This document shows positions 2,605 through 51,344 of a stretch of DNA of 64,000 nucleotides, in pieces. A program made the position numbers and the translations under genes. Under the pieces are notes generated by a model, which made no database searches, was not told the origin of the DNA, and worked only from the letters and a program-made list of their open reading frames with translations. Within the stretch, counting starts at the first letter, position 1. Every line of letters begins with the position of its first letter. The DNA is from Candidatus Gottesmanbacteria bacterium UBA5942 (GTDB lineage Bacteria > Patescibacteriota > Microgenomatia > UBA10105 > UBA927), in the NCBI GenBank assembly GCA_002430725.1, contig DJCU01000040.1:15401-79400 (forward strand), given 5' to 3'.

Positions 2605-2605
2605 A

Positions 2606-3082: not shown

Positions 3083-3130
3083 AATTGTATTGTATGATAA
3101 GATGGTTGTTGTTGCAAAACAGAGAAGTGT

Positions 3131-4444: not shown

Positions 4445-4454
4445 CGTAAACCGT

Positions 4455-29660: not shown

Positions 29661-29765
29661 CTATTGAACCAGAGTAACGAAAGTGACGAGAATAACGAAC
29701 ATAACAAGAGATCGTGGTGGGATATGCTCGTTATTTTCGTTCTAGTCGTTTATTGTTATTTATAT

Positions 29766-30824: not shown

Positions 30825-30850
30825 TGATATATAAGCGAGGAATATAACGT

Positions 30851-32059: not shown

Positions 32060-32589
32060 TGATAAACCTAGATTATATGAGAAATTATCTTGCCCAAAAT
32101 AAAGGTTTTACCTTAATCGAGCTTCTTATCGTTATTGCTCTTCTTGGAGCACTTGCAGTTGGACTTCTCGCTACTATCGATCCTTTCGAACAACTGAAAA
32201 AAGGTCGCGATACATCACTTCGGAATACTGTTTCCGAGTTTTATAACGCAAATTTGCGCTACTATGCTACCAAAGGGCAATTTTACTGGGGTACTGATGG
32301 TACTTCTGGAAGTGCCTATCCAAACTTTACCAGTACCATTACTGAGCTTATTACCGTAGGAGAACTGAAAGCGCGCTTTCAAGAGCTTGCTGGCAGTAGC
32401 AACTTAGCGAAAATCTATATCAATTCAACAAGCGGAGAGCATCTGTCTACCTGCTTTGTTCCTGAATCAAAAGCATTTCAGGAAGACTTGAACACGATCT
32501 ACGAAACCAGCGGTGAGCCTGCGACAAATACCTGCAAATCACAGACGACTGGCACTGCAGGTTCAAGTTGCGCCTTCTGTATACAGTAA
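32059..32589 (+). CDS. pilA: Type IVa major pilin (prepilin with N-terminal methylation motif)
   Basis: KGFTLIELLIVIALLGALAVG class III signal; C-terminal Cys pair (D-region). Confidence 0.8.
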   Translation: MINLDYMRNYLAQNKGFTLIELLIVIALLGALAVGLLATIDPFEQLKKGRDTSLRNTVSEFYNANLRYYATKGQFYWGTDGTSGSAYPNFTSTITELITVGELKARFQELAGSSNLAKIYINSTSGEHLSTCFVPESKAFQEDLNTIYETSGEPATNTCKSQTTGTAGSSCAFCIQ

Positions 32590-32619
32590 CGAACCATAGC
32601 GGTTTGTTATAATGCCCAC

Positions 32620-34629
32620 ATGATCGTATCATTCGTGATGTTTGTTCTATCGCTTGTCCTGTTTCTCGCGTTTCAGGCACAGGGAATTTATACAGGCGAT
32701 AGCGGAGACCTCGTTACTGCAGCATACATCGGAGGCGTGCCGCATCCCCCTGGGTATCCACTCTATACATTGTTAGGTTTTTTGCTTTCGAAACTCCCGT
32801 TTTTTAGCGTTTCGTGGCGATTAAGCTTGCTTTCTTCAATTCCTCATGCAATGAGCGTTGGGCTTGTATTTTTGCTCATTTATTACTTGACGAAAAAAAA
32901 TACATGGGCAGCGCTATTTGGTTCACTGCTGCTTTTGTCTAATTATCTCTTCTTTTTGTACAGTACGACTCCCGAAGTGTTCGCCATGTTTGATTTGTTT
33001 ATTCTAGCGTGTTGGTTTTTGCTTTACCGTTGGCAGGAAACCCGGAATTTTCGATATTTTTATTACGCGTGTTTTGTATTTGGGTTGTCACTCACCCATC
33101 ATCATGTCATGGCGTTTTTTGTCCCAGCATTTTCCTATTTTATATGGAAAAACACGCATGCGTATAAAAAGAAACTGACAATGCGCATGGTATTTTTGTC
33201 TATATTGTCATTTTTGGTTGGATTATTGCCGTACGCCTACGTGCCAGTGGCGGCAGTGCGGGATACAATTATCAATTGGGATAGAGCAGTAGACCTTTCG
33301 GGATTTGTGCGCCTCGTGACACGCGCTGACTATGGCACGTTTGTATCCGGTGGCGGGTATGGTGAAACCCTTGTTGAGCGGTGGTTTGCAGTGGTCGCAT
33401 ACGCTAATTTTCTGGTCACCGACTGGAGTTGGGTCGGTATTACGTTGACAATCGTAGGGTTGTGGGCGCTTTATAAAACACAGCGCATTTGGTTTTGGTC
33501 ATGGGTGATAGCGCTTCTTTGTGTCGGGCCACTCTTTTTCTTTTACGCAAGTTTTCCGCTCGCAAGTCGTTTTACATTGGGGACGTACGAACGATTTTTA
33601 TTGCCAAGTTATGTGCTCATGGGTGTCGCCTCCGGTATAGGATTAGGCGAAACACTGCGGATTATTTCTGGTATACTCACTCCCCGCTTGACGCTTTCAA
33701 AGCGCAAAGCAGTGATGGTACTGGTATTTTTGACCTTTCTTATTTATCCTCTCACCATTTCAGGTATCACGCTGTGGCGGTTTGTCGGGTTACCGAAAGA
33801 TCGGACTGCAGACAACATGGGTATCGATATATTAGAAAATACTGCCCCAGGAGCGATATTGTTAATGAGTCAGGACACTGCGTTGTTTACCACACAATAC
33901 GTGCGATATGCACTGGGCGTGCGACCTGACACTGCAGTTATTCATGCGGTACGATTACCTATCGAGGGATATCAGGCATCACTTACTAAATCTTTTCCGC
34001 ATCTCGTTTTCCCAAAAGCTTCGCCTGCGACTTACGTTGAGGAATTTGTTAAAGCAAACCGGACACAATCGCAACGAATATATAGCAATGTCATTTTGCC
34101 TGCGGGTGAAGGGTGGTATTGGGTGCCTCGTGGGATGCTCTATGAGGCAGTTCCGTTTGACGAGCTACCCGGTGATGAGGTTATGTATCAGGATGCGAAA
34201 GCGCATCTTACGCGACTCCATGATCCACGTTCTGGAATTTTGGGTCGTTATGAACACCTTATGTTGTCTGATGTGCTAGATGTCTACGGCCATGCCGCCA
34301 TAGCGCTGGGGAAAACACTTGTACGTGCTGATCGATGGGAAGATGCGAGAGTAGAATTTACGCGCGCAGTGTCATACGCAGGCGACACCAGTATCGGTGA
34401 GGCGTTGGAACTGTTAGGACTTACTCATTTGCACTTTAAGGACTGTGATGCGGCACTTCGTGCGTTTCGCGAAGCGAAAGAACGTTCAATTGTGATTTCT
34501 CCCCGACACATTATGCTCGAGTCCGTTACGTTCGGTGAGTGCGTGGGCGATGAGAAGCGCGCTTCTGAGCTTTTTTCGGAGTATGAACGACTACGTTCCG
34601 CTTCAGAGCAATCATTAGAAGCGCTGTAA
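32620..34629 (+). CDS. GT-C-type polytopic membrane glycosyltransferase-like protein (DUF2723/PMT/TMTC-like) with C-terminal TPR repeats
   Basis: About 11 N-terminal TM helices with aromatic-rich loops, C-terminal TPR (ALGKTLVRADRWEDARVEFTRAVSYAGD...); sits directly downstream of the pilin gene. Confidence 0.5.
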   Translation: MIVSFVMFVLSLVLFLAFQAQGIYTGDSGDLVTAAYIGGVPHPPGYPLYTLLGFLLSKLPFFSVSWRLSLLSSIPHAMSVGLVFLLIYYLTKKNTWAALFGSLLLLSNYLFFLYSTTPEVFAMFDLFILACWFLLYRWQETRNFRYFYYACFVFGLSLTHHHVMAFFVPAFSYFIWKNTHAYKKKLTMRMVFLSILSFLVGLLPYAYVPVAAVRDTIINWDRAVDLSGFVRLVTRADYGTFVSGGGYGETLVERWFAVVAYANFLVTDWSWVGITLTIVGLWALYKTQRIWFWSWVIALLCVGPLFFFYASFPLASRFTLGTYERFLLPSYVLMGVASGIGLGETLRIISGILTPRLTLSKRKAVMVLVFLTFLIYPLTISGITLWRFVGLPKDRTADNMGIDILENTAPGAILLMSQDTALFTTQYVRYALGVRPDTAVIHAVRLPIEGYQASLTKSFPHLVFPKASPATYVEEFVKANRTQSQRIYSNVILPAGEGWYWVPRGMLYEAVPFDELPGDEVMYQDAKAHLTRLHDPRSGILGRYEHLMLSDVLDVYGHAAIALGKTLVRADRWEDARVEFTRAVSYAGDTSIGEALELLGLTHLHFKDCDAALRAFREAKERSIVISPRHIMLESVTFGECVGDEKRASELFSEYERLRSASEQSLEAL

Positions 34630-36763
34630 TGATGGCGCTTATTGCGCTTATTATCGCTCCCCACCTGAGTGTCAGAGGCGCATAGATAAACGACACTTCA
34701 TGCGTACCTTCTGGTACTATTATTGCCCGTTGCGATAGATTTGCGGCAAATATTGGTGTTTCTTTGTCATCCACTGTTGCTATCCAACCGGGGTAATGCG
34801 TATCGGCTAGCACCAGTAGCCCTGGAGTTGCCATCGTAACAGCAAGGTCAACGCGTACGTGAGCGTCAGTTTGCCATGCAATATGGTCAGCTTGTGTATT
34901 GCGTAAGGTGTGAGGTTGTTTTTCTATAAGTTGTGAAAGAAAGGTGTTGTTTTTTACTTCGTGTTGCTCAAGCATAACCGAACTTCCTACACGAAAATCA
35001 GGGTTACGAAGGGTAAGAATTGCATCTTTCAGAGTTGCGGCGATTGTTGCCTCATGTACGGTATATGCGCGAGGAAGTGCCTCATCGTTGGTGTAAAGAG
35101 TGACTGCAAAATCAGCAGATTTTTTATGATACGCCTCTCGAAGCGCTGGAGGTGCAGTGAGCGGAAGAAATGAAACGACATTGCCGATTGCATACATATT
35201 TGCGAGGTGAAGCGCTGAGATTGTGGCGTGTTGTGCGTCAATGGTTACTGTTTCGTCAAGGAGGCTGCCGCCAATTGCTGGTCGGTGAAGGTATCGGCCT
35301 GCATATACCTGTGCCTGATCCACCCCCCACAAGATGTTGCTGTTGGGTGATAAGCTATCTTTAAGTGAACGAAATCCTTCAGGTTTGCTCCAGCCAGTGG
35401 TAATCATCATGTCGTTATATATACTGCTATCGCCAATAGTAAGCACTCGGCCTGGCCCTACATAGTTTTTGAGGTCAGGTGCTTCTATCCATAATGCCGC
35501 AGGTTCAATAAGGTGGTATGACCACCAGGTGTACATAAGTTGTCCGCTATGGAGCGCCATAAGGCTATAAATAAAAATATATGAAAGTGGGGTGCGGATA
35601 TGCCTGCGGAGCGTATCAAACGTATGTGCCGCGATAAATGATATGCCGATAATGACAAGCCAAAGAAACCGTGAAGGCACTCGGAAAAGATTGAGTGGCC
35701 ATATACTAAATACGATATATGTAGGCGCATATTTGCCACCCGCAAGCGTGAGTGAGACGATAACGACAAGCCACCAGAATATAATAGTGGGATTTTTGCG
35801 GATGCGAAAAAGACTTAACACAAGAAGAAATAGTGGAATAAGTCCGATATAGGCAGTATTTTCCCAAAATATGCTTCCGTCAAACGCATAAAAAGGCGGG
35901 TACGTTCCATTGGCCGGGTTTCCAAGAAAAAACGGTGAAATAAACGAAACGAGATGTTTTATTGGCATGGAATACATGGTTGCTGCTTCAGGACTAAAAC
36001 CAGATGGACTTGGGCTTTCTTTAAGAAATTCCCAAGATGGCAGAAGTTGCATAGCTCCCCCACCGATGCCCAACAAGAGAGAGATAGACCAGTACCATAT
36101 AGCTCGCCAATTTTTATTGGGTAACGTAAGCCAGAGAACGATTACGCCTGATATGACGAGGGTAAGAAATGTCGCCTGAGGAAATCCTGCATATATTTGT
36201 TGTGAAAGCGACAATGCAAGAAGTCCACCCCAGGGAAATGGTTTACTGGTGACAACCAATATACTGAGTGTCGCAATAATTGGAAGCATGCTCATTCCCT
36301 GGAGCAGTGTAATATGGGGTAGTTGGGTTATGGTAAGGCTCGAAAACATAACGGTTACCGCGGTAAACCAGCTCGAAAGTGGAGAAAGTCGCATTACCCT
36401 GCACCACCAATAGATACCTAACCCAAGTGTGAGGACGGCAAGGGTAAGCGTGAGGTTATATGCAGTAACAGGCTCAAAGAGGCTAAAAAACACGAGATTT
36501 GGAAGAAAAAATACTCCGGTTTGTCCCTCAGCAAGGAGTGGAAATCCTTGACCCACGTCACTTCTCCATAGTGGAAGGGTATGGGATTGGAGCGCTTGGG
36601 AAAGTGCAAATTTTGTCACAAAACTAAAATGCCATGCGTCACTTCTCCCATAGTCAGGAGTCACGATAAGTTGTGGTGTGGGATAAAATAAACGTCCAAA
36701 AAAAACGCCTACCAGGAGAAAAAGCGAAATAATGCCTATACGATCAGCCCAAACACTGCGCAT
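34526..36763 (-). CDS. YfhO-family GT-C membrane glycosyltransferase-like protein
   Basis: 745 aa, many TM helices, YfhO-like N-terminus (LFYPTPQLIVTPDYGRSDAWHFSF); convergent with the upstream gene and overlapping it by about 100 nt. Confidence 0.5.
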   Translation of the reverse strand: MRSVWADRIGIISLFLLVGVFFGRLFYPTPQLIVTPDYGRSDAWHFSFVTKFALSQALQSHTLPLWRSDVGQGFPLLAEGQTGVFFLPNLVFFSLFEPVTAYNLTLTLAVLTLGLGIYWWCRVMRLSPLSSWFTAVTVMFSSLTITQLPHITLLQGMSMLPIIATLSILVVTSKPFPWGGLLALSLSQQIYAGFPQATFLTLVISGVIVLWLTLPNKNWRAIWYWSISLLLGIGGGAMQLLPSWEFLKESPSPSGFSPEAATMYSMPIKHLVSFISPFFLGNPANGTYPPFYAFDGSIFWENTAYIGLIPLFLLVLSLFRIRKNPTIIFWWLVVIVSLTLAGGKYAPTYIVFSIWPLNLFRVPSRFLWLVIIGISFIAAHTFDTLRRHIRTPLSYIFIYSLMALHSGQLMYTWWSYHLIEPAALWIEAPDLKNYVGPGRVLTIGDSSIYNDMMITTGWSKPEGFRSLKDSLSPNSNILWGVDQAQVYAGRYLHRPAIGGSLLDETVTIDAQHATISALHLANMYAIGNVVSFLPLTAPPALREAYHKKSADFAVTLYTNDEALPRAYTVHEATIAATLKDAILTLRNPDFRVGSSVMLEQHEVKNNTFLSQLIEKQPHTLRNTQADHIAWQTDAHVRVDLAVTMATPGLLVLADTHYPGWIATVDDKETPIFAANLSQRAIIVPEGTHEVSFIYAPLTLRWGAIISAISAIITALLMIALKRNVVVHTPKKAQKRASHRPRTHRT

Positions 36764-36847
36764 ATTAATTGTCTAGTCTACGGGTTTTCTCTTTTCCCCG
36801 CAACGCCTTATTGAAAGTTTTGTTTCTGTAGTCGATACTTTATATAT

Positions 36848-37600
36848 ATGATCTCCGGATTTATATTTCTCTTTGGGTTAGTAATCGGTTCATTTCTCAA
36901 TGTTGTCATAGATCGTTTGCCTCACGGGGAAAATATTATTTGGAAGCCATCACATTGTGATTTTTGTAAAAAGCACTTGCGGTGGTTCGAACTTGTTCCG
37001 GTGATTTCATTTCTCTTTCAGGGTGGTCTATGTCGGAGATGTCACGCTCGGCTATCGTGGCAGTACCCCATGATGGAAGTGGTAACAGGAATTGGTTTTG
37101 TATTGCTAAGTCGCCAGTTTGATGTCGCAAGCGTCATGTTTTTGGCCGCCATCTTCGTGTACTCATTGTTTCTCGTTATTTTTGTGATTGATCTAAAGCA
37201 TCAGATTATTCCGGATAGTATGCTTCTTTTGCTACTTTTCGTATTTATTATCGTTGGTATAGCATTCCCTACTCCTGATCGTTTTTTGCATGTTGTTGCA
37301 GGTCTTGGTGCAGGTGCATTTTTCTTTCTGTTATGGCTTATTACCCGCGGCAAAGGTTTGGGGTTTGGTGATGTAAAACTTGTGGTGCTGATAGGATTGT
37401 TTCTCGGATACCCAGGAACGGTATTTGCTCTGTATATCGCTTTCTTGACCGGCGCTATTGCGGGTGTCATACTGATGATAACCAAGCATGCCAAAATGAA
37501 ATCGCGCATCGCTTTTGGACCGTTCCTTCTACTGGGAACGCTGAGCGCGTATGTATGGGGTGATAGTATGTGGCGTTGGTGGATGGGATTATTTATATGA
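36848..37600 (+). CDS. pilD: Prepilin peptidase PilD (A24 family)
   Basis: Zinc-binding CDFC...CRRC; catalytic DLKHQIIPD and GFGDVKL motifs. Confidence 0.85.
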   Translation: MISGFIFLFGLVIGSFLNVVIDRLPHGENIIWKPSHCDFCKKHLRWFELVPVISFLFQGGLCRRCHARLSWQYPMMEVVTGIGFVLLSRQFDVASVMFLAAIFVYSLFLVIFVIDLKHQIIPDSMLLLLLFVFIIVGIAFPTPDRFLHVVAGLGAGAFFFLLWLITRGKGLGFGDVKLVVLIGLFLGYPGTVFALYIAFLTGAIAGVILMITKHAKMKSRIAFGPFLLLGTLSAYVWGDSMWRWWMGLFI

Positions 37601-38067
37601 AGCGGTATTTATCACAACAGCGTAATGATCGGATACATGGGTTTTCGCTTGTTGAGCTACTGATTACGGTGTCGATTATCGCCATTCTTGTGGCGATCGG
37701 TATCGCATCATACGCCACCATAAACAGACAGTCACGAGATACGAGGCGAAAAAGCGACCTTGAGCAAATTCGTTCGGCGCTTGAAATGTACCGTGCGGAC
37801 AACGGATATTATCCAGCGGCAAATGGATCGTCATGGGTGGTAGCATCTGAACCAACACTCGGTTTGACGACCGCCCTCGTGCCTACCTATCTGCCGATCA
37901 TTCCGACTGACCCTAGCTCACCAGACCAAGACTATATGTATCAAGCGACCAATGTAGCGAGCGGTTTGTATTACGGATACTGTATAAGTGGTGGGTTGGA
38001 AGGTGAAGATCCGACCGATACCTGTACTCCTGCACCTACCCACACCTATGGCTTGAAAAATCCATGA
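37597..38067 (+). CDS. Minor pilin / pseudopilin (GspG/PilE-like)
   Basis: GFSLVELLITVSIIAILVAIG prepilin signal; ATGA overlap with the pilD stop. Confidence 0.7.
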   Translation: MKRYLSQQRNDRIHGFSLVELLITVSIIAILVAIGIASYATINRQSRDTRRKSDLEQIRSALEMYRADNGYYPAANGSSWVVASEPTLGLTTALVPTYLPIIPTDPSSPDQDYMYQATNVASGLYYGYCISGGLEGEDPTDTCTPAPTHTYGLKNP

Positions 38068-38534
38068 TGAAGAAAGGATTTACCCTCATTGAATTGTTAA
38101 TCGTTATTCTCATATTGGTCACCATTATGGGATTGGGTATGGCGAGTTTTAATTCCTTTAATCGTAGGGAGCGTCTAAAGCAAACTGGTCTCACACTCAG
38201 GTCAAATTTGCGGTTTAGTCAAACCAAGGCGATATCAGCGCAGAAACCTGCTTCTAACTGTACCACGTATGTGGGTATGCGAATTAGCTTTTCCGAAACA
38301 TCCTATAGCTCACAGCATGAATGTGATCCGGAGGGTTTAGTAGGGTCAGTTGATGTTGTCACGTTACCTATGGGAATTACTTTTTTACCGATACCTGCTG
38401 ATTTTACATTTCTTACCCGTACGAATACCGCAAGCATAGCGAACGATGTCACCATTACTCTGACAAACGAAGATCAGAATTACTCTCTCACGTTATCGCC
38501 TAGTGGTAATATTCGTGATTTAGGATTTGAATAA
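38064..38534 (+). CDS. Minor pilin (GspH/FimT-like)
   Basis: KGFTLIELLIVILILVTIMG prepilin signal. Confidence 0.7.
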   Translation: MMKKGFTLIELLIVILILVTIMGLGMASFNSFNRRERLKQTGLTLRSNLRFSQTKAISAQKPASNCTTYVGMRISFSETSYSSQHECDPEGLVGSVDVVTLPMGITFLPIPADFTFLTRTNTASIANDVTITLTNEDQNYSLTLSPSGNIRDLGFE

Positions 38535-38542
38535 GTTTTACT

Positions 38543-38992
38543 ATGAAGCACAGAAAACGAGAGTCGGGTCAAACATTATTAGAGCTTGTTATTGCGTTGG
38601 GAGTTGTTGCTGTTGTTATTACTGCACTCGTGTCTGCGGTGACTGCTTCGCTTCGGTATAGTCAGGCGACTCGGTTTCGGAGCAGAGCAGTAAAATTTGC
38701 GCAAGAAGGCGTTGAGCTTACGCGGAAAGTTCGTGATGAGCAGCCTTGGAGCACATTTTTTGCATACACTGGTGGCGATGGAAGATGGTGTCTAGACGCA
38801 TCTGGCGTATGGACAGATGATGATGGCAATGGGACATGTCCGTTAGCAGCGGGAGATAATTTTTGGCGAAGCGTACACTTTTCCTGGGATGACACAGAAG
38901 ATATTATGATAGTAACAGTGCGCGTATCGTGGGGTGATCGTAGTACTCCATCTACTGTTGAGCTGGTTACTCATTTTACGGAATGGAAATGA
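38543..38992 (+). CDS. Minor pilin (PilV/GspI-like)
   Basis: GQTLLELVIALGVVAVVI prepilin signal. Confidence 0.65.
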   Translation: MKHRKRESGQTLLELVIALGVVAVVITALVSAVTASLRYSQATRFRSRAVKFAQEGVELTRKVRDEQPWSTFFAYTGGDGRWCLDASGVWTDDDGNGTCPLAAGDNFWRSVHFSWDDTEDIMIVTVRVSWGDRSTPSTVELVTHFTEWK

Positions 38993-39555
38993 AAAAAATA
39001 GAACACATAGCGCATCGACAGGCTGGATTTACGTTGCTTGAAATGGTCGTGTCTATTGCGATTGTTGCGTTAGTCGCGACAGTACTGAGTCAGGTGTTTA
39101 TTTCTACACTGCGTACGAATACCAAAACAGAAATTCTTAAAGACATGAAGCAAAACGGTGAGTTGGCGCTCGAAAATATGGTGCGCATGATCCAAAACGC
39201 ACAGGATATTACCAGCACATGTGAAAGTACTGGAACGAGCAGTCAAACTATTACCCTTCTTAATCCTGATGGCAAAGAAACCAGCTTAGGTTGCATTGTA
39301 GACGGCACTATTACCCGGTTGGCATCAACAAGCGCGGAGGGAACAGAATACCTTACCTCTAGTAATGTCACCGCGGGTGGCACGACATGTGCAGGAAGCT
39401 CGATTGAATTTCTGTGTAAAGGTGGCGCGGGGGTTGCACCTAGCGTCACTATATCATTTCAGCTCGCGCAATCAGGTACTGCTGTCGGAGTATTTGAACA
39501 GTCTAGCGAGTCGTTTCAGACAAGCGCAAACATGAGAAACATTTTTAAGGAATGA
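38983..39555 (+). CDS. Minor pilin (PilW/GspJ-like)
   Basis: AGFTLLEMVVSIAIVALV prepilin signal. Confidence 0.65.
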   Translation: MEMKKIEHIAHRQAGFTLLEMVVSIAIVALVATVLSQVFISTLRTNTKTEILKDMKQNGELALENMVRMIQNAQDITSTCESTGTSSQTITLLNPDGKETSLGCIVDGTITRLASTSAEGTEYLTSSNVTAGGTTCAGSSIEFLCKGGAGVAPSVTISFQLAQSGTAVGVFEQSSESFQTSANMRNIFKE

Positions 39556-40454
39556 AGCTTCTTGCGAAGGAGCGAGAAATGTATAACAATAGTCGTATGA
39601 GGAGAATTAATGCTATGAAGAATTCATTTGAGCAGGGTCAAATATTGCTCATTACCCTTCTCGTATTGACTGTTGCAACCACGATTGCCCTCTCCCTCAT
39701 CGGTAGGGCAACTATCGATTTGTCGATGAGTAATCAATTAGAAGAATCTACCCGCGCGTTTAATGCTGCTGAAGCAGGTATTGAACAGGCATTGCAATCA
39801 GGCTCAGAGACGGCAACAGGACCGGTGACGCTTACATCAGGCGTGACCTACGAGGTTTCGGTTAACTCTATCGGTGGACAGCCGGGCGTATTTCAGCTTG
39901 CGCGTAAAACACCAAAAAATGTGACGGAAACAATATGGTTGGTTAACCATGACCCCACTACAGGTGCTCTTGATGAGACGCGAGTTTTTGACGACAACAC
40001 CCTTTCGCTATGCTGGAGTCAGGAAGAAGCGCCCGATGTCGCCGCAGCGCTCGAAGTGACGGTACTGTATAAAGACAATCTAAATGAGTATCACGCAGCC
40101 CGCATGGCGGTTGATCCGGACGCCGTCACCCGTAACAACAATTTTGATTCATCAGGTATCACCCTTGATGGATGCGGACTTGGATATTATGAAAAACAGG
40201 TGGACTTTACGACACTAGGTATTAGTCCAGCTGGCACCGATACGTTACTCGCACTTCGTATCCGTCCGATATATGCAGACGCTACTATTGCTATAGATAG
40301 CGCCTCAGATATTCCCCAACAAGGGAATGTGATTGAATCTGTCGGAAGGACCGGTACTGGAGTCAGTCGAAAAGTGGTGGTGTATCAGCAATATCGCGCT
40401 CCGCTTTCCGTATTTGATTCGGTACTATTCAGTCAGTCATCGCTCAGTCACTAA
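39552..40454 (+). CDS. PilX/GspK-like minor pilin
   Basis: QGQILLITLLVLTVATTIALS PilX N-terminal motif; the start may be the internal MKNSFEQ. Confidence 0.5.
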   Translation: MKLLAKEREMYNNSRMRRINAMKNSFEQGQILLITLLVLTVATTIALSLIGRATIDLSMSNQLEESTRAFNAAEAGIEQALQSGSETATGPVTLTSGVTYEVSVNSIGGQPGVFQLARKTPKNVTETIWLVNHDPTTGALDETRVFDDNTLSLCWSQEEAPDVAAALEVTVLYKDNLNEYHAARMAVDPDAVTRNNNFDSSGITLDGCGLGYYEKQVDFTTLGISPAGTDTLLALRIRPIYADATIAIDSASDIPQQGNVIESVGRTGTGVSRKVVVYQQYRAPLSVFDSVLFSQSSLSH

Positions 40455-40485
40455 AACAAGGGAAGGAGTATAGATATACTGCCCT

Positions 40486-41511
40486 ATGAAATCCATTTTA
40501 GGTCTTGATATCGGTTCACATAGTATAAAACTCGTTGAGATAGGCTCGTCCGGCACAGAGCGTCATTTACTTGCCGCAGGAAGCATACCAACACCCCCCA
40601 AAGCACTCCAGTCTTCGTTAGACGCTGATCATCAGGCTGTCGCGATGGCGATAAAGCAACTCATAAAAGAAACAGGTGCGAAATCAACGTCTGTAGCGTT
40701 TGCATTGCCGGAGTCACAGGTATTTACTCGGGTCATCGAAGTGCCGGCATTATCGCAGCGCGAACTTTCAAGCGCCATAGGATGGGAGGCAGAGCAGTAT
40801 ATTCCCCTACCGCTTGATCAAGTAAATTTGGATTACTCGATACTTCGGGATGCCAAAGAAACAGGTACGGATAAAATGGACGTATTGCTTGTCGCGTGCC
40901 CCAAAAATTTATTGGAAAAATATCTTTCTATCCTTGAAGCTGCCGAGCTCATCCCCCTAGCTGCCGAAACCGAAATTATTGCAACCGCGAGGGCATTGTC
41001 CCGTTCGGTTGCGACTATCAAAAACGCGGCGCTCTTGGTGTCTTTGGGAGCGCAAACAACCGATCTTGCCATTTTACGCGGGGGTGTATTGGCGTTTACT
41101 CGTTCGATTGCCGCTGGCGGAGAAGCGCTTTCTCGGGCATTGGTGTCGGGATTGGATTTTAATACCAATCAGGCAGAAGAGTTTAAACGTACCTACGGGC
41201 TGGAGCAGGATAAACTACAAGGGAAAATAGTAGCTGCAGTGAAGCCGATTATGGATACGATTATAGGAGAAATGAAGCGAGCGCTTGCGTATTATAGTGA
41301 GAAACATAAGGATGAGCGCGTGGAAGTGACACTACTTTCTGGAGGCACCGCGAAGCTCCCCGGTATGGTTGTGTATATTGCCCAAAATGTGGGTATAGAG
41401 GCACAGCTTGCAAACCCCTGGGTCGGTATCAAGCGTGACCCACGATTTGCTGTATTAGATAAAGAAGGAGCGACTTTCACCGTAGCGGTAGGTCTCGCTC
41501 TTCGGGAGTGA
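40486..41511 (+). CDS. pilM: Type IV pilus assembly protein PilM (actin-like ATPase fold)
   Basis: ILGLDIGSHSIKLVEIG phosphate-1 motif; FtsA/PilM architecture. Confidence 0.85.
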   Translation: MKSILGLDIGSHSIKLVEIGSSGTERHLLAAGSIPTPPKALQSSLDADHQAVAMAIKQLIKETGAKSTSVAFALPESQVFTRVIEVPALSQRELSSAIGWEAEQYIPLPLDQVNLDYSILRDAKETGTDKMDVLLVACPKNLLEKYLSILEAAELIPLAAETEIIATARALSRSVATIKNAALLVSLGAQTTDLAILRGGVLAFTRSIAAGGEALSRALVSGLDFNTNQAEEFKRTYGLEQDKLQGKIVAAVKPIMDTIIGEMKRALAYYSEKHKDERVEVTLLSGGTAKLPGMVVYIAQNVGIEAQLANPWVGIKRDPRFAVLDKEGATFTVAVGLALRE

Positions 41512-41517
41512 TCGCGC

Positions 41518-42060
41518 ATGAGCAATTCAGATATAAACCTTATCCGGAAAGATGTAAGTAGTTCCCGTAAATTTTCAGTCCTAGAAGAAAAACTGCGGCT
41601 TGTCTCAGTATGGTTTTTGGGCGGCGTGTTTGTTATCGGGATAGCAATAGGAACTGCATATCTTTATATAAGTCTCCGTGTCCGGTCGCTTGAAGCGACA
41701 AAAGTTACTCTCGCACAACAAATAAATCTCCAGAGTGCCAAAGAAGGTATTTTGCTATCGCTCAAAGAACGGACTTCTGTGGCTGGACGAGCGCTTGAAG
41801 TGGCGAAGCCTTGGGGAAAAATGTTTACGGTATTACAGGAAATTGCCTCGGAAGCACAATACAATTCACTTACTGTGGATGACACTGGTAAAGTGACGAC
41901 TACATTATTCCTCGGTTCTATAGACGAATCGGTTTCTGTGGTGCTTAATCTCGTGAGACTGGTAAATGAGCGGATGCTTCGTACGCCACAATTGTTATCA
42001 TTTTCGTATAAAGAAGACGCTACCGTACAAATGACAATATCGTTTTTTCCGGTTTTTTAA
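41518..42060 (+). CDS. pilN: PilN-like bitopic pilus assembly protein
   Basis: Short cytoplasmic N-terminus, single TM, periplasmic coiled coil; position after pilM. Confidence 0.55.
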   Translation: MSNSDINLIRKDVSSSRKFSVLEEKLRLVSVWFLGGVFVIGIAIGTAYLYISLRVRSLEATKVTLAQQINLQSAKEGILLSLKERTSVAGRALEVAKPWGKMFTVLQEIASEAQYNSLTVDDTGKVTTTLFLGSIDESVSVVLNLVRLVNERMLRTPQLLSFSYKEDATVQMTISFFPVF

Positions 42061-47437: not shown

Positions 47438-47561
47438 GAGGCTATTATACAGCGTTACTGTAATCCACCTGCGAGGAATGGTACGAAAGAAGTCGCCACA
47501 AGCGCAATTGTCGAGATGACGACAATCACCTTCCAGAATTTTTCGTGTTTTCTAAAAAAGT

Positions 47562-48785
47562 TCATGACGTTATTTTACCAGCTTTTCTGCCGACTTTTAA
47601 TATATCGCCTTTTTTGGGTGATATTGCCTGGTGATAATCGGTTATAAGTTCGTTGTTAAATGCAACCGCCTTTTGTTCGATGAGGCGTTTCGCTTCAGAT
47701 TTGCTTGAAGCAAAACCTGAGGCAAGCACGACATCAGAAAGCGTAGGATTATCGGAAAATGCGCTCAGTGACAACGGTACGAGCTCCGCGTTACCCAAGT
47801 CGCCCTTTTGAAATCGAGTTTCAAATTGTTTCTGTGCGTTTTCGGCATCTTTGTCTGAGTTAAATTGTCGTGTGAGTTCGTACGCAAGTTGCTTTTTGAA
47901 CTTCATAGGGTTTTCCCCTTCCGTCATTTGTTCTTGCATGGCGGTAATGTCGTTGTCAGATATATCAGTGAGTAATGTAAAACATGGAATGATAGCGTCA
48001 TCACCTAATGACATTATTTTGCCATAAAAATCGTTTGGTGCATCGGTAAGCCCAATCGCATTGCCTTCTGTTTTCCCTATTTTCACCCCTTTGGCGTCTG
48101 CAAGAAGTGGTACGGTCATCACGAATTTTTCCCTGCCCTGCATAGCCGATACCAATTGGCGACCTGCAAGCATGTTAAACGATTGATCCGTTCCGCCAAG
48201 TTCAAGATCGACACTCATCGCGACCGAATCATATCCTTGGAGTAGCGGGTACAAAAATTCACGAAGATTTATCGACTCTCCCCGTTTCATGCGCTCCTGG
48301 TACATGTCTCGTTCAATAAGTTGCTGCACCGAAAAATTTTGTGCGATTTCCAAAATATCTACAAGCGTAAGCGAGTTTAGCCAATCACCGTTGTAGAGAA
48401 TTTCTACGGGATTATCGCCATCAAACCGAATTATTTTACTTGCCTGTTTTACGTAGTCCTGTGCATTTGATCGTAGTTCCTCACGGGACATAAATTTTCC
48501 ACGAGCTTTCATCTTGCCCGAAGGGTCTCCTGCCTGGCCAGTCCCATCACCGATTAAAAATATGACATGGTGTCCGAGATCCTGAAATTCTTTCAGCTTT
48601 CTAATCGCTACCGCATGCCCGATATGCAGCTGCGTGCCAGTCGGATCAAAACCCTGGTACAGCCGAAGTTTTTTGCCGCTACGAAGCACTTTTTCAAAGG
48701 CTTCACGATTTGGGTAAATGGTGTCGACACCCCGAGTTAATAAATGATCAATTGCGTCCATAATTTCTCCTTTACTATAGCACAC
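47562..48785 (-). CDS. tyrS: Tyrosine--tRNA ligase with C-terminal S4 domain
   Basis: HIGHAVAIRKL (HIGH), KIGKTEGNAIGL (KMSKS-region equivalent), S4 C-terminus. Confidence 0.95.
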   Translation of the reverse strand: MCYSKGEIMDAIDHLLTRGVDTIYPNREAFEKVLRSGKKLRLYQGFDPTGTQLHIGHAVAIRKLKEFQDLGHHVIFLIGDGTGQAGDPSGKMKARGKFMSREELRSNAQDYVKQASKIIRFDGDNPVEILYNGDWLNSLTLVDILEIAQNFSVQQLIERDMYQERMKRGESINLREFLYPLLQGYDSVAMSVDLELGGTDQSFNMLAGRQLVSAMQGREKFVMTVPLLADAKGVKIGKTEGNAIGLTDAPNDFYGKIMSLGDDAIIPCFTLLTDISDNDITAMQEQMTEGENPMKFKKQLAYELTRQFNSDKDAENAQKQFETRFQKGDLGNAELVPLSLSAFSDNPTLSDVVLASGFASSKSEAKRLIEQKAVAFNNELITDYHQAISPKKGDILKVGRKAGKITS

Positions 48786-48794
48786 CGTTAGTCA

Positions 48795-49901
48795 TTATTC
48801 ATGCCACACGTGTCGTGCCACGCGTGCGACAAGCTGTAGTTTCCGTTTCTGATCACGTACCGTCATATTATTGCCGCGGGCGACAGACGCAAATCCGCAT
48901 TGCGTGCTTATCGCGAGCCGTTCTATCGGAACAAAACGTGCGGCTTCCCGTATACGCGCCACCAGATCTTTTTGCCGTTCGAGTTTGGGTGACTTGGTGG
49001 TTACAAGACCCAATACTACTATTTTATCTTTCGGCACATGACGCAACGGGCTGAAATCGCCCGCGCGCTCACTGTCAAATTCCAACAGCAGCCGATCTAC
49101 GCGCGCACGTTTAAAAACGATATCTGCGATGCGCTCGTATCCTCCTCGAGCCATAAAACGGTTTTTGTCGTTACCGCGGCATATGTGGAGTGACGTTGTG
49201 CCGGAAAATCCCTCTAAGATGTCATTTATCATCGCCACACCTTCGGCAATAAGCGTTTCAGGGTTGAACCCTTTGCCCGCAAACCATTCCCGCTGAACCG
49301 GATCAAGCAGCATGCCAAATTCGGGAGCATCAACCTGTATGTGGGCAACCCCCTGTCGATCCAGTTCCCGCACGCTCTCCTTGAGGTGGTGTGTGACATC
49401 TTTGAGAAACCCAAGTGGTGACGGGTATACCCGGTTAGATATGCCAGGGACAAAGTAGTAACTCATCATAGTCGGGCTTGGAATAGTAATTTTTGTCGGC
49501 ATATCGGTGATTGCCCGCAGGAATGAGAATTCGTCAACCGAGATATCATGAATTTTTTTAAGTTTCCCGACGATGCCTACCGTTACCGGATCGACAATTT
49601 TCTTTCCGTTCATATCAAACCAGATGACGGTGTTTCCCGGGACATTCCATTTAAATCCTTCCATCGCTTTTACAAAATTATGGCAAAATACCGGGCGGCG
49701 CATTTCCCCGTCGGTAACGATATCGACACCGGTCTCTTCCTGTATGGTGACTGCTTCTCTGACCGCCTTGTCTTCTTCCCGAGTGAGATCAGCCGGTGTT
49801 GCTTTTCCCTGCCTCACATTTTCCTGCATCGCAAGCAGTGATGATGGTCGCAGCATACTGCCCACAACATCAGCTCGTATGGGCGCTCGTTTTGTTTTCA
49901 T
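48795..49901 (-). CDS. Core (single-domain) cobalamin-independent methionine synthase, MetE C-terminal-like
   Basis: DVVGSMLRP start typical of the MetE catalytic barrel; Zn ligands retained (H-I-C in GTTSLHICRGN; Cys in ISTQCGFAS); no N-terminal folate-binding barrel. Confidence 0.8.
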   Translation of the reverse strand: MKTKRAPIRADVVGSMLRPSSLLAMQENVRQGKATPADLTREEDKAVREAVTIQEETGVDIVTDGEMRRPVFCHNFVKAMEGFKWNVPGNTVIWFDMNGKKIVDPVTVGIVGKLKKIHDISVDEFSFLRAITDMPTKITIPSPTMMSYYFVPGISNRVYPSPLGFLKDVTHHLKESVRELDRQGVAHIQVDAPEFGMLLDPVQREWFAGKGFNPETLIAEGVAMINDILEGFSGTTSLHICRGNDKNRFMARGGYERIADIVFKRARVDRLLLEFDSERAGDFSPLRHVPKDKIVVLGLVTTKSPKLERQKDLVARIREAARFVPIERLAISTQCGFASVARGNNMTVRDQKRKLQLVARVARHVWHE

Positions 49902-50761
49902 GTTTCCTCCTTCCGGGCAAATGCCCTAAGTGAAATGGGACTAAAATCTAGCACGTGTCCTTTGACAGGATCTCGGTTAATCCGCCGTTTGGACCAAGGC
50001 GAAAGGTTTCTGGGCGGTTCCGCGTCCGTCACCGACCATACCGATACTCCAGGTAGGTGACGCAGCACATCGGAGAATTCCTTCTTTGAAAAAGCAGCAG
50101 TAAATGTCGGCAGAAGAAGCGGCACGATAGACGGTTTCGTAAACCGGAGCCTTTCCTCAAGTGCTGTTAAAAATTCGGGAGACGTATTCCGCTGGTAGTC
50201 TGCAACCAGTAGGCTTCCGCCTGGTTTCGTCAGCCTGAACATTTCAGTCATTGCTTCACGCAGGCGCTCCAGGCTCGACATCTGATGGGTAGAGTTATGG
50301 CTAATCACCAGGTCAAACTGGTTGTCCGGTAATGCAATACGTTCTACCGGTGACTTTACAAATCCCATGCGTCCGAGTATCGACCGGGCGTGAGCTTTTT
50401 GTCGCGCGTGTTGAAGCATCGTGTCATCGCCATCATGTTCCATGACAAATTTTGCGCCCATTTTGGATAGTTCGCGTCCAAGCCTACCTGGGCCCGACAT
50501 GACATCCAACACGTGCATAGAGCGAAGCTTCCGTTTGCCGAACCGGTTCGCTACCTCGCGCGCGAGTAGCCAATCATCGACCGATGCGGGGTAATCACAC
50601 CCCTGAATGTACGTAAGCGCTTCGTCACGCGTGAACATTTCCGCACGTTCGGGTACCCGTGTCCGGAAATCGAGCGCACGTAATCCGAACGGGTCGACAT
50701 TTTTTTGCCTGAGCATGTCAGATCTCATGATTTCTCTCATATATCCCTCACTTTCATACAT
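49898..50761 (-). CDS. Class I SAM-dependent methyltransferase
   Basis: Motif I VLDVMSGPGRLG, motif post-II PGGSLLVADY; stop overlaps (ATGA) the start of the downstream MetE-like gene. Confidence 0.7.
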   Translation of the reverse strand: MYESEGYMREIMRSDMLRQKNVDPFGLRALDFRTRVPERAEMFTRDEALTYIQGCDYPASVDDWLLAREVANRFGKRKLRSMHVLDVMSGPGRLGRELSKMGAKFVMEHDGDDTMLQHARQKAHARSILGRMGFVKSPVERIALPDNQFDLVISHNSTHQMSSLERLREAMTEMFRLTKPGGSLLVADYQRNTSPEFLTALEERLRFTKPSIVPLLLPTFTAAFSKKEFSDVLRHLPGVSVWSVTDAEPPRNLSPWSKRRINRDPVKGHVLDFSPISLRAFARKEET

Positions 50762-50824
50762 AATGTTTATACGTTTTGCATTTCGGGTCGCAGCCCTTTT
50801 GTATACGAAAGGGTTTGCCCGTAT

Positions 50825-50909
50825 GTGCTGAGGGGAGGATTCGAACCTCCGCAGACCTGAAGATCAGCTGTTTTACAGACAGCCGCAGTTGTCCCCTTTG
50901 CTACCTCAG
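50825..50909 (-). tRNA. tRNA-Tyr (anticodon GTA), class II, no encoded CCA
   Basis: Minus-strand sequence GCTGAGG...: anticodon stem GCTGT/ACAGC, loop CTGTAAA giving GTA; long variable arm; T-loop GGTTCGAATCC; discriminator A. Confidence 0.85.
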
Positions 50910-50939
50910 CAATATGTATGTATCAATATGTTGTCGCCA

Positions 50940-51285
50940 CAAAAAACCCCGCCTCCGTCCCCGATAAAAAATCGGGAACAAGGGCGGGGGTTTATCCCAC
51001 GCGGTACCACCTTGCTTCGCTAAAGTAAGTTTTTTCCACAAAAAAACCGACGAGAGGTCGGTTCTACCTTAGCCTCATTTGTGAACTCCGCTTATGGCGA
51101 CATTCACATTCTGCTTTTACGGGCTTACCCGGATTGGTTTACTCCTTGTTCAACCTTTCAGCTCAAGTGAGTATTTCGCAGATAATCTATCGGGAGATCT
51201 TGCACCAACCGTCTCCTCTCTCTTGTCTCAGATTGCCTACTACTTCATCACTTTCAATGCTTTTCCTATTCAATTGTTGATTGAA
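50940..51285 (-). promoter_or_regulatory. Putative T-box riboswitch leader (tRNA-sensing antitermination)
   Basis: Minus strand: promoter TTGACA-17-TACAGT; T-box core AAGGUGGUACCGCG (forward 51000-51013) giving antiterminator AAGG/CCUU + bulge UGGUACC + GCG/CGC; overlapping intrinsic terminator CCCCCGCC...GGCGGGG + U7 (forward 50942-50998). Confidence 0.6.
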
Positions 51286-51344
51286 ACTGTATCACAATTT
51301 GTCATTTTTGTCAATCGCAGTTACAATGGATTTCGTGATACAAA

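Follow-up and report, generated by a model that had tools for sequence, protein, structure and literature searches.

The window, by which we mean the whole 64-kb stretch of DNA that was analyzed, carries on its minus strand a promoter-like site and a T-box leader, in which a UAC specifier is combined with an intrinsic terminator, and these are followed in order by tRNA-Tyr, methyltransferase, core MetE, tyrS, and the gene for a 36-aa peptide. This region is best read as an operon governed by transcription attenuation in a CPR (Microgenomates-type) bacterium, and the explanation developed below has, taken as a whole, about an even chance of being correct. The promoter-like site (51286..51314; all features given here lie on the minus strand) is found ~20 nt upstream of the leader and consists of TTGACA, a 17-nt spacer, and a TG-extended TACAGT. 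It was located by a consensus scan (10/12 matches) and is a consensus match only; TTGAC.../TGnTATA-like elements occupy aligned positions ahead of the leaders of other loci. The tRNA-Tyr (50825..50910; ARAGORN; Rfam tRNA, 55.4 bits) has the anticodon GUA, a long variable arm, G1-C72, and A73, and starts 30 nt past the terminator U-tract. After a gap of 63 nt it is followed by the gene for a class I SAM-dependent methyltransferase of 287 aa (49898..50761; Pfam Methyltransf_25, 9.5e-17, with Methyltransf_11 and Methyltransf_31), which overlaps, at an ATGA stop/start, the gene for the core MetE, a single barrel of 368 aa (48795..49901; PF01717, 6.8e-18). The downstream tyrS (47562..48761; TIGR00234, 338 bits vs. 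a cut-off of 113.8) encodes, if translation starts at the ATG at 48761, a bacterial-type enzyme of 399 aa with both PF00579 and PF01479 (the class I catalytic and S4-like C-terminal domains). Its ORF reaches back to a GTG at 48785 (47562-48785); the ATG is favored because public gene calls also give 399 aa and because GGAG lies 8 nt upstream of it. The gap between core MetE and tyrS is thus probably 33 nt, and 9 nt only with the GTG start.

An earlier note on this DNA had described four genes on one strand separated by 9 nt or less or by small overlaps. All four genes were confirmed on the minus strand, and the ATGA overlap is present, but the spacing is wider than had been stated at both the tRNA-methyltransferase and, probably, the MetE-tyrS junctions. 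The same note overlooked the T-box leader with its terminator, as well as the conserved small ORF (47455..47565) whose ATG overlaps the tyrS stop (ATGA). The hydrophobic 36-aa translation of this ORF, MNFFRKHEKFWKVIVVISTIALVATSFVPFLAGGLQ, is kept at 43-77% identity directly 3′ of tyrS in 9 other loci, and the ORF is annotated as a gene in NCBI and JGI records. Also present in the window are folD and tgt.

The T-box leader RNA (50977..51266; Rfam RF00230), directly upstream of tRNA-Tyr, comprises Stem I, the Stem II region, Stem III, the T-box sequence, and the antiterminator. It matches the full model (1-219) with 93.8 bits (E 3.4e-20), barely passing the gathering score of 93, and homologous leaders in 18 other loci score 44-112 bits against RF00230. 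The leader alignment places the specifier codon, UAC (Tyr), at 51171..51173 in the Stem I specifier loop (GAAAUACU, then the helix), and this codon is invariant in 20/20 full-length leaders aligned; a UAC at nucleotides 2-4 from the 3′ end of the bulge corresponds to the "+0" frame of TBDB (PMC7778990). The UGGU bulge of the leader can base-pair with A73 of the neighboring tRNA-Tyr(GUA). Upstream of the T-box sequence lies an internal hairpin, CCGACC...GTCGG followed by a run of 7 U (51040..51061), which is kept with its T-run across leaders (T231-T234 are invariant in alignment A2) and is possibly Stem III or a candidate pause/terminator-like element. The intrinsic terminator of the T-box (50941..50989), with a 19-bp stem, a 5-nt loop, and U6, is contained in both the MFE and centroid folds of the whole leader (z = -3.65) and is kept, together with its U-run, in all leaders aligned. 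In the predicted structures the segment that forms its 5′ arm also serves as the 3′ arm of the antiterminator helix in the Rfam model, which makes the two helices mutually exclusive; uncharged tRNA-Tyr is the predicted inducer of the operon.

The Core MetE and the Methyltransferase

The MetE-like protein matches PF01717 (Meth_synt_2) with 65.5 bits against a cut-off of 21 over residues 13-341 of its 368, contains no further domain, and is therefore a core MetE, defined by Meth_synt_2 without Meth_synt_1 in a protein of ~340-390 aa. Its Zn ligands (H239, C241, E274, and C335) and homocysteine contacts (S15, E66, and D191) are invariant in 32 family members, in agreement with the earlier description of a protein that keeps these ligands and lacks an N-terminal barrel; the homocysteine contacts align with Ser22, Glu73, and Asp188 of 3RPD, and all seven residues align with 1YPX. 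The nearest solved relative is PDB 1YPX, which matches over the full length (E 1.2e-55, 192 bits), while the MesD-type structure 3RPD scores 61 bits. Among NCBIfam models, the best matches are PRK06520 (259 bits, cut-off 313) and PRK06233 (216 bits, cut-off 576). By these comparisons the core MetE lies near the uncharacterized YxjG/YxjH (1YPX) clade and outside the curated thresholds, suggesting a separate CPR subfamily. In Lactobacillus, short genes annotated as methionine synthases stand under Met T-boxes (PMC2494555).

The known kinds of short methionine synthase fit poorly. MesD, membership of which was set by Price et al. 2021 at no less than 390 bits to ACIAD3523-type proteins (PMC7857596), was rejected on the basis of 98 bits to PRK09121 (cut-off 392), the score to 3RPD, and the lack of DUF1852 in the annotated loci. 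The archaeal-type short-synthase NCBIfam models, used as proxies for the MesA, MesB, and MesC references, gave 50/258 (PRK00957), 107/406 (PRK04326), and 19/399 (PRK01207) bits/cut-off. Of the two models proposed at the outset, Meth_synt_2 matches (PF01717), and neither DUF1852 (MesX, PF08908) nor a corrinoid protein was found in the Pfam-annotated loci. A split MetE was rejected as well: no PF08267 (Meth_synt_1) occurs in the annotated loci, and the upstream partner is Methyltransf_25/11. That the protein might group with MesA-D, an outcome that would have undone the original proposal, is not what these scores indicate, the comparison with MesA, MesB, and MesC being made through the proxy models.

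The upstream partner has the features of a class I SAM-dependent methyltransferase, namely the Pfam domain, motif I (D-x-x-x-G-x-G), an acidic residue after beta-2, and a Rossmann-like fold, and in addition carries conserved N- and C-terminal extensions. Its family is marked by the motifs GCDYPxSVDD, CHNSTHQ, ADYQR, and DPVKGH, and the source names of its 108 homologs with at least 49% identity are only from CPR; judged by these homologs, it is a CPR-restricted family. In its AF2 model (pLDDT 89) the protein has a NovO-like small-molecule fold: NovO/CouO is the best structural match and all top structural neighbors are small-molecule methyltransferases. A role as an RNA methyltransferase is unlikely because the family is acidic, with a median pI of 5.4. 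Named equivalogs were rejected (UbiE, 53.7/378; CpaM, 52.7/180; BioC, 44.7/185; bits/cut-off), and the public "UbiE" label on an identical protein, far under the UbiE cut-off, is without support.

Conservation and Regulation of the Pair

In a survey of 46 non-redundant CPR loci, core MetE directly follows the methyltransferase gene in 43 of the 44 that have enough downstream DNA, and the methyltransferase is upstream in 4/4 contexts retrieved from the MetE side; the conserved linkage that the earlier note had put forward as its own check is therefore found. The junction is a 4-nt ATGA/GTGA overlap in 27 of 40 measured cases and a gap of 1-5 nt in 8 more, and adjacency and coupling hold over methyltransferase divergence down to 38% identity. 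This arrangement is far beyond chance, and by their gene order methyltransferase and core MetE are a near-obligate, translationally coupled pair across the family. A fusion of the two proteins was looked for and none was found, nor did we find a description of the pairing in the literature.

The tyrosine signal is also widespread. Of 34 loci, 28 carry a Tyr T-box upstream; tyrS is a direct neighbor in 24/33, and tRNA-Tyr stands between T-box and methyltransferase in 13 of the 28 T-box loci; coregulation with tyrS, initially regarded as unexpected, is instead a conserved core feature exerted through the Tyr (UAC) T-box. Five loci without nearby tyrS or tRNA-Tyr (L001, L004, L007, L008, and L054) keep the Tyr T-box with intact specifier and terminator, which by the usual T-box regulon logic argues for a tyrosine-related role, and the link to tyrosine persists where an archaeal-type TyrRS replaces tyrS. 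Recurrent neighbors, DAHP synthase (L005 and L024) and TrpR-like and racemase genes (L037 and L054), hint at aromatic amino-acid metabolism.

A different signal is found at a single locus, L027, where a SAM-I riboswitch (RF00162; 454-555, 49.5 bits vs. a gathering score of 44.4, E 1.2e-8) takes the place of the T-box. It is in sense with the pair, with a hairpin and U-run next and the methyltransferase start at 617, and high SAM is predicted to switch the operon OFF, a puzzling response for an enzyme that consumes SAM, except in the case of catalytic use. Because L027 combines this riboswitch with a gene for homocysteine S-methyltransferase (HMT) and, on the opposite strand, genes for SAH hydrolase and a PfkB kinase, its context supports a tie between the methyltransferase-MetE pair and the Met/SAM cycle. 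In L001, L004, and L007, metK is located 2-3 kb downstream. A SAM-I riboswitch was searched for in the window and is absent.

Discussion

Collectively, these comparisons suggest that methyltransferase and core MetE work as a module of two proteins that S-methylates homocysteine to form methionine and that is usually wired to tRNA-Tyr charging, a proposal to which we give roughly half of our confidence. In this module the YxjH-type barrel would bind and activate homocysteine, while the NovO-fold SAM-binding protein would stand in for the missing folate-binding barrel and deliver, relay, or re-activate the methyl group. SAM itself would probably act catalytically or be drawn from an outside pool; it cannot be the net donor because each SAM methyl costs one methionine. 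The plant S-methylmethionine cycle, made up of MMT and HMT, yields no net methionine, and the reactivation domain of MetH uses SAM only catalytically, in a protein whose gene can be under SAM control. The earlier suggestion that the methyltransferase serves as methyl donor or relay is thus sustained with respect to a role in Met/SAM metabolism, to which the SAM-I riboswitch, HMT, and SAH hydrolase of L027 point, but fails for SAM as a stoichiometric source, which would give no net methionine. The simplest reading of the tyrosine wiring is that the pair was recruited into a tRNA-Tyr/tyrS attenuation unit, which would tie the regeneration of methionine and SAM to the demands of translation. A partner may be dispensable for the barrel, because YxjG/YxjH-type proteins elsewhere occur, to our knowledge, without a linked methyltransferase. 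That the pair represents a fifth kind of core methionine synthase, a YxjH-type barrel obligately dependent on a SAM-methyltransferase-fold subunit, under a Tyr T-box whose targets include the gene for the leader's own ligand, tRNA-Tyr, is a bolder proposition and one that we hold tentatively, at somewhat below even chances. If true, it would open a first way into the methyl-donor chemistry of the YxjG/YxjH clade as a whole, and in minimal CPR cells the regeneration of methionine and SAM would answer to one aminoacylation signal. The pairing may show how tiny-genome CPR bacteria remake methionine.

Other explanations have to be weighed against this module. The two proteins could be independent enzymes of the methyl cycle, with a barrel made self-sufficient by an unlinked donor (methyl-folate or S-methylmethionine) and a SAM-consuming methyltransferase that acts on some small-molecule acceptor and whose SAH is recycled by the barrel. 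The presence of folD in the window, and hence of a folate C1 pool, the metK and SAH hydrolase genes among the neighbors, and the existence of YxjH-type proteins lacking a linked methyltransferase all agree with such independence. The clostridial ubiG operon provides a parallel, as its generic SAM-methyltransferase is embedded among sulfur amino-acid genes that T-box and S-box elements control (PMC2940859). We nevertheless regard independence as unlikely, since the near-universal adjacency and its persistence in distant homologs exceed the expectation for a mere pathway neighbor, and the sense SAM-OFF riboswitch of L027 misfits an enzyme that drains SAM. The evidence for an identity as ordinary MesA, MesB, MesC, MesD, or split MetE, with the established partner encoded elsewhere and the methyltransferase irrelevant, reduces to the shared Meth_synt_2 barrel and its Zn/homocysteine residues. 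Such an identity can hardly be credited given the far closer match to 1YPX than to 3RPD, scores far under every relevant NCBIfam cut-off, and the lack of DUF1852, corrinoid, and Meth_synt_1 genes in the annotated loci, and it would leave the strict methyltransferase linkage without explanation.

The tyrosine signal invites explanations of its own. The pair might make tyrosine available from a precursor or derivative, or it might neutralize a phenolic tyrosine analog that blocks TyrRS, with homocysteine/SAM chemistry as the tool. The prevalence of the Tyr T-box, its retention in the five loci without tyrS or tRNA-Tyr, the survival of the link when tyrS is swapped for an archaeal-type TyrRS, and the nearby DAHP synthase, TrpR-like, and racemase genes would all follow, and NovO/CouO, the best structural match of the methyltransferase, C-methylates a tyrosine-derived phenolic ring. 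Yet that likeness is at the level of the fold only (21% identity), every homocysteine-binding residue is kept in a barrel whose relatives are tied to methionine control, and L027 has swapped the T-box for a SAM riboswitch beside HMT and SAH hydrolase genes; moreover, a chemically sensible two-step route to tyrosine with these folds could not be formulated, and we consider a role in tyrosine metabolism distinctly doubtful. Cotranscription with tRNA-Tyr and tyrS, and tgt in the same window, could also speak for a tRNA-Tyr maturation unit, in which tRNA-Tyr (or TyrRS) would be the substrate of the methyltransferase and homocysteine would be recycled by the barrel. This is very improbable for an acidic family that has no RNA-binding domain and only small-molecule enzymes as top structural neighbors, and the pair persists without tRNA-Tyr/tyrS and under a SAM riboswitch.

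Comparison with Known Systems

The proposed module shares elements with several known systems. YxjG/YxjH (1YPX from Listeria; PRK06233/PRK06520) are likewise single Meth_synt_2 barrels of ~370 aa with identical Zn and homocysteine residues, and the S-box control of Bacillus yxjG and yxjH has one counterpart here, in L027; the short Lactobacillus genes under Met T-boxes are presumably YxjH-type. In contrast, the CPR protein falls under both curated cut-offs (259/313 and 216/576), and its barrel, preceded by a dedicated methyltransferase, usually answers to a Tyr T-box and not to a Met T-box or S-box. A SAM-binding methyltransferase module joined to a Zn-dependent homocysteine methylase also recalls the plant S-methylmethionine cycle and MetH, although those use PF02574 or the MetH Hcy domain, as opposed to PF01717, and no cobalamin domain is present here.

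MesA and MesB use methylcobalamin or corrinoid-protein donors, and MesD works with MesX (Price et al. 2021, PMC7857596; Deobald et al. 2020, PMC7005905). Common to these and to the CPR pair is a MetE barrel that lacks the folate domain and needs an external methyl-donor system, and MesD and MesX share with it the dedicated adjacent partner gene. They differ in sequence clade (61 bits to the MesD-type 3RPD), in the CPR host range, in regulation, and in the partner, here a class I SAM-methyltransferase fold and not DUF1852 or a corrinoid protein. Split MetE, with separate Meth_synt_1 and Meth_synt_2 proteins, similarly sets a catalytic barrel beside a separate protein with donor-binding function (PMC7857596). 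With respect to the methyltransferase, NovO/CouO (PDB 5MGZ and 5M58) are aminocoumarin C-methyltransferases with 16-21% identity, whereas invariant motifs and a C-terminal extension of its own set the CPR family apart, and it has no antibiotic gene cluster nearby.

In terms of regulation, the clostridial ubiG-mccBA(-luxS) operon (PMC2940859) also places a UbiE/UbiG-annotated SAM-methyltransferase in a T-box/S-box sulfur amino-acid operon. However, that operon, which lacks a MetE-like barrel, runs from methionine to cysteine under a cognate Cys T-box, whereas the T-box here is non-cognate (Tyr) for the apparent chemistry. The leader itself resembles the Firmicutes tyrS T-box (RF00230) in its UAC specifier, UGGU bulge, terminator/antiterminator switch, and regulation of tyrS. 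Unlike its Firmicutes counterpart, the CPR leader directly precedes the gene of its own ligand, tRNA-Tyr, and two metabolic genes, and in five CPR lineages it controls the enzyme pair without a nearby tyrS.

Results

The methyltransferase and core MetE genes form a near-obligate pair

Gene calls and domain matches confirm the four genes that an earlier note, made from the sequence alone, had described on one strand, and place them all on the minus strand of the window: tRNA-Tyr(GUA) (50825-50910) is followed by the genes for a 287-aa class I SAM-methyltransferase (MTase; 49898-50761), a 368-aa core MetE that consists of a Meth_synt_2 barrel and nothing else (48795-49901), and by tyrS (47562-48785). 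The ATGA overlap by which the MTase gene was reported to run into MetE is present and is preceded by GGAGG. Gaps of 9 nt or less had also been claimed, and here the description needs correction: 63 nt separate the tRNA and MTase genes, and tyrS lies 9 nt from MetE only if the GTG at 48785 is its start codon. We favor the ATG at 48761, because public gene calls and a GGAG point to it, which gives a gap of 33 nt. A 36-aa hydrophobic single-helix ORF (47455-47565, minus strand) overlaps the tyrS stop codon by ATGA, is kept at 43-77% identity directly 3′ of tyrS in nine of the related CPR loci collected for comparison (L002, L003, L035, L036, L037, L040, L041, L045, and L046), and is probably the final gene of the transcription unit.

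Sequence identical to the window is also found in NCBI assembly GCA_002430675.1 and in a 1.17-Mb JGI contig. Local GC content (0.48 versus ~0.445) was considered as a sign of horizontal insertion, but the signal is too weak for use. Elsewhere the window carries tgt (8102-9286), for the queuine tRNA-ribosyltransferase, which has tRNA-Tyr among its substrates; folD (19304-20149, minus strand); a phage-type integrase gene (14861-15844); and a large type IV pilus/T2SS-like cluster (27912-42060).

The survey set comprised 46 non-redundant loci, the window counted in, drawn from MTase-profile scans of contigs representing one genome per species and of contigs from metagenomes, together with four look-ups from MTase homologs and four starting from MetE homologs. 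The survey relied on tblastn, ARAGORN, and nhmmer with a leader profile, and 19 leaders were confirmed by Rfam. Core MetE lies immediately 3′ of the MTase gene at 43 of the 44 loci with sufficient downstream DNA, bearing out the proposed linkage in other genomes; the sole exception, L018, retains the remnant of a truncated MetE. The junction is a 4-nt ATGA/GTGA overlap in 27 of 40 cases and a gap of 1-5 nt in another 8. An upstream T-box is present at 28 of the 34 loci having at least 450 nt upstream, with tRNA-Tyr between leader and MTase in 13 of these 28. The association with tyrS, adjacent at 24 of 33 loci, also stands, although the Tyr T-box leader ahead of the tRNA had been missed.

Three layouts of the adjacent tyrS occur: a bacterial type downstream, a bacterial type upstream (L005 and L024), and an archaeal type downstream, at the tyrS position 3′ of the pair (L006 7952-9058, NF006330, 359 bits; L023 6982-8106). 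At L028, a tRNA-Tyr of 74 nt that lacks the long variable arm lies downstream of MetE (2140-2213). Archaeal TyrRS and archaeal Tyr identity sets are spread in CPR, and both the archaeal-type layout and the L028 tRNA agree with this pattern (PMC5370408).

Core MetE is a predicted homocysteine alkyltransferase

The core MetE of the window aligns over its full length with PDB 1YPX (E 1.2e-55), a YxjH-like protein of Listeria labeled "putative B12-independent methionine synthase", and only weakly both with the MesD-type structure 3RPD (8e-16) and with full-length MetE. The top NCBIfam models score below their cut-offs (PRK06520, 259 bits versus 313; PRK06233, 216 versus 576), and scores against archaeal-type models for short synthases are far lower. 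As the earlier note had stated, the Zn and homocysteine ligands are present, and all are kept across 32 CPR members, which are 67-78% identical to the window protein: S15, E66, and D191, corresponding to Ser22/Glu73/Asp188, the selenomethionine contacts of 3RPD (PMC7857596), and likewise H239, C241, E274, and C335. Sequence evidence of every kind thus identifies core MetE as a Zn-thiolate homocysteine alkyltransferase. It belongs to a CPR subfamily beside the YxjG/YxjH clade, is not a split MetE, and appears not to be a member of the MesA-D core methionine synthase clades.

The methyltransferase belongs to a small, isolated family

Databases contain 108 homologs of the MTase with at least 49% identity, which have in common characteristic extensions at both termini and the motifs GCDYPxSVDD, CHNSTHQ, ADYQR, and DPVKGH. 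Among homologs that bear an organism name, the nearest belong to Candidatus Gottesmanbacteria, Daviesbacteria, Microgenomates, and, in one case, Saccharibacteria, which places the window in a CPR/Patescibacteria genome. A profile run against 1.84 billion representatives recovered just 15 clusters at E ≤1e-30, which argues for a small, isolated family. AF2 models the protein with high confidence (pLDDT 89). The protein falls below every curated equivalog cut-off (CpaM, 53/180 bits), and the JGI label "ubiquinone/menaquinone biosynthesis C-methylase UbiE" on the identical protein is not supported (54 bits versus a cut-off of 378).

Longer distant relatives have receiver (REC), ThiF, or unannotated N-termini. 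In the representative library, P0244, P0249, and P0262 are distant full-length relatives (~70-120 bits) with an N-terminal response-regulator receiver domain. Five MTase homologs of ~330-343 aa (P0014, P0058, P0060, P0077, and P0083) carry an extra N-terminal segment of ~50-70 aa, FSRRARKLLGRA..GVDP....

A tyrosine T-box precedes tRNA-Tyr and the gene pair

Directly upstream of tRNA-Tyr in the window is a T-box leader (50977-51266, minus strand; RF00230, 93.8 bits versus a gathering score of 93, E 3.4e-20), preceded by a promoter-like consensus match, TTGACA-17-TGnTACAGT. The leader ends in a predicted terminator hairpin of 19 bp with a U6 tract (50941-50989, minus strand), the 5′ arm of which is the 3′ arm of the antiterminator, according to the Rfam structure and the predicted fold. 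The Stem I bulge reads GAAAUACU, and UAC occupies nt 2-4 counted from the bulge end, which is the default specifier frame in TBDB (PMC7778990). The UGGU bulge is complementary to A73 of the adjoining tRNA-Tyr. Together, specifier and bulge predict that the signal sensed is uncharged tRNA-Tyr. UAC is the specifier in 20 of 20 full-length leaders aligned; a reading as ACN (Thr) is ruled out by the TBDB register, the invariance of UAC, and the neighboring tRNA-Tyr and tyrS.

In the window the tRNA-Tyr gene begins 30 nt past the terminator U-tract, and in 8 of 13 loci it lies no more than ~40 nt from the end of the leader-profile match. This leaves little space for a separate tRNA promoter, so that the gene for the T-box ligand appears to be controlled by the T-box itself, which would constitute a possible positive feedback loop. 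The layout recurs in the window (50825-50989), L002, L031, L035, L047, L051, L052, and others. At five loci (L001, L004, L007, L008, and L054) an intact Tyr T-box stands before the pair and both tyrS and tRNA-Tyr are absent from the vicinity, and at several of these the terminator ends just 9-80 nt from the MTase start, which argues that the pair itself is under predicted tRNA-Tyr control.

A G+C-rich hairpin with a run of 5-7 U lies within the window leader, 5′ of the T-box sequence (51040-51061). Nearly all family members keep this element, which resembles either an additional terminator or a programmed pause that follows Stem III. Stem I is shortened to K-turn and specifier in L006 (5559-5787) and L029 (540-770), with UAC and terminator retained. 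Upstream of tyrS in the tyrS-first loci, L005 and L024, no T-box was found even at E 10, and none was found at thrS, pheST, or hisS in the sampled DNA. That the Tyr T-box is the sole T-box, and hence a general starvation sensor, is ruled out by L013, where a second, short T-box (306-465, 62.6 bits) lies ~1.7 kb upstream of the Tyr T-box, with a similar promoter and a differing specifier region, GAUUCC (UUC or AUU); it precedes four small ORFs that lack annotation, one of which resembles the YafQ toxin.

ORFs with no Pfam match and little conservation intervene between T-box and MTase in L001 (319 aa, 5024-5983), L004 (114 aa, 5367-5711), L017 (127 aa, 5-388), L037 (78 aa), and L039 (80 aa); a further inserted ORF is in L032 (279-356), and those of L004, L017, and L032 share the C-terminus ...DGE(A/I)VAEI(K/R)HI. 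Between core MetE and tyrS, L039 also carries a 285-aa ORF (6848-7705) with no Pfam match and a WSMSK motif recalling the KMSKS loop of class I synthetases.

A SAM riboswitch replaces the T-box at one locus

The metagenome contig L027 carries the pair with no T-box; identity to the window proteins is 52% for the MTase and 70% for MetE. Upstream of the pair, the 3′-terminal part of a gene for a homocysteine S-methyltransferase (PF02574, 93 bits, GGCCGTTPEYI motif) is followed by a SAM-I riboswitch (RF00162, 49.5 bits versus 44.4, E 1.2e-8) that has a terminator-like hairpin. Genes for SAH hydrolase and a PfkB kinase, possibly adenosine kinase, lie downstream of the pair on the opposite strand. 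This methyl-cycle locus spans 1-5970 and is the sole one with an S-box in the place of the T-box: no further SAM riboswitch was found in the other Rfam-scanned loci, and a motif scan of all fetched loci returned L027 only. A metK gene is present 2-3 kb 3′ of the pair in L001, L004, and L007. The L027 context and the metK neighbors are independent genomic pointers to the methionine/SAM cycle.

Discussion

The best-supported reading, to which we give about an even chance, is that the pair constitutes a two-protein, methionine-forming homocysteine methylase. By its sequence the barrel is predicted to bind and activate homocysteine, and the near-obligate linkage and translational coupling suggest that the SAM-binding NovO-fold protein substitutes for the missing donor-binding barrel. 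Each SAM-derived methyl costs one methionine, and the L027 riboswitch is sense-oriented, OFF at high SAM, and ill-suited to a SAM-draining enzyme; both points suggest that the role of SAM is more likely catalytic, by analogy with MetH reactivation. Alternatively, SAM may be imported or may be the cofactor of an MTase-fold enzyme with other chemistry. No MTase-MetE fusion (Rosetta-stone) was found. Two independent enzymes within one methyl-cycle operon, which may be compared with clostridial ubiG-mccBA (PMC2940859), are an unlikely explanation, though one to be taken seriously. Modification of tRNA-Tyr by the MTase, for which the neighboring tRNA gene might speak, is very improbable; the family is acidic (median pI 5.4), and no RNA-binding domain was found in it. 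The basic pI of core MetE (median 9.3) was dismissed as a hint of tRNA binding, as the window proteome has a median of 8.3 and is bimodal. That core MetE is an ordinary MesA-D member, despite its closer match to 1YPX than to 3RPD, receives the least credence of all.

For the tyrosine signal, the simplest account of a two-protein methylase is that the pair was recruited into a tRNA-Tyr/tyrS attenuation unit, such that Met/SAM regeneration would track translational demand. Against this account, and in favor of a tyrosine-directed function of the pair, the intact Tyr T-box is kept at loci where tyrS is gone. Such a function, which we consider decidedly unlikely, also finds support in recurring neighbors from aromatic metabolism. 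DAHP synthase is the first enzyme of aromatic amino acid synthesis, and one or two genes for it follow the pair in L005 (8087-8875; TIGR01361, 284 bits) and L024 (6272-7492 and 7715-8140), both with the tyrS-first arrangement and no T-box; in L005 an AlaX-like editing protein is encoded next. TrpR-like genes (PF01371) lie beside the pair, in the operon or divergently upstream, in L031, L037, L047, L048, and L054, alongside an Asp/Glu/hydantoin-family racemase (PF01177) in L037 and L054 (TrpR-like/racemase regions: L037 6871-8167; L054 8026-9439; L047 4287-4565; L048 4324-4641).

T-box, class I MTase, core MetE, and tyrS are each of a known kind. The searchable literature yielded no description of an obligate MTase/core-MetE pair, of a Tyr T-box governing such genes, or of a T-box directly ahead of the gene of its own tRNA ligand, nor did a literature search yield one of YxjG/YxjH biochemistry. 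The wiring of the T-box is unusual here, and we infer the two-protein mechanism. Core methionine synthases are an open problem in that their physiological methyl donors are mostly unknown, and this strictly conserved two-gene system is a tractable candidate for the large YxjG/YxjH-like clade, the two small genes making its methyl-donor question directly testable. The system also bears on the upkeep of the methionine/SAM cycle in CPR/Patescibacteria with minimal metabolism. It would extend T-box biology in two respects: a Tyr T-box stands over genes that seem to serve the chemistry of a different amino acid, and in 13 loci it apparently also controls, in an autoregulatory arrangement, the gene encoding its tRNA ligand.

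In the core-synthase papers examined (PMC7857596, PMC10861871, PMC12478193), the partners are corrinoid, MesX (DUF1852), or fusion proteins, and no SAM-MTase is reported. The exchange of T-box and SAM riboswitch before one gene pair provides a clean comparative clue to function. In Bacillus, yxjG and yxjH are under S-box control, and the short synthase genes under Met T-box control in Lactobacillus are presumably YxjH-type. The methyl-cycle context of the pair agrees with these Lactobacillus genes, which are annotated as methionine synthases and are controlled by Met T-boxes (PMC2494555).
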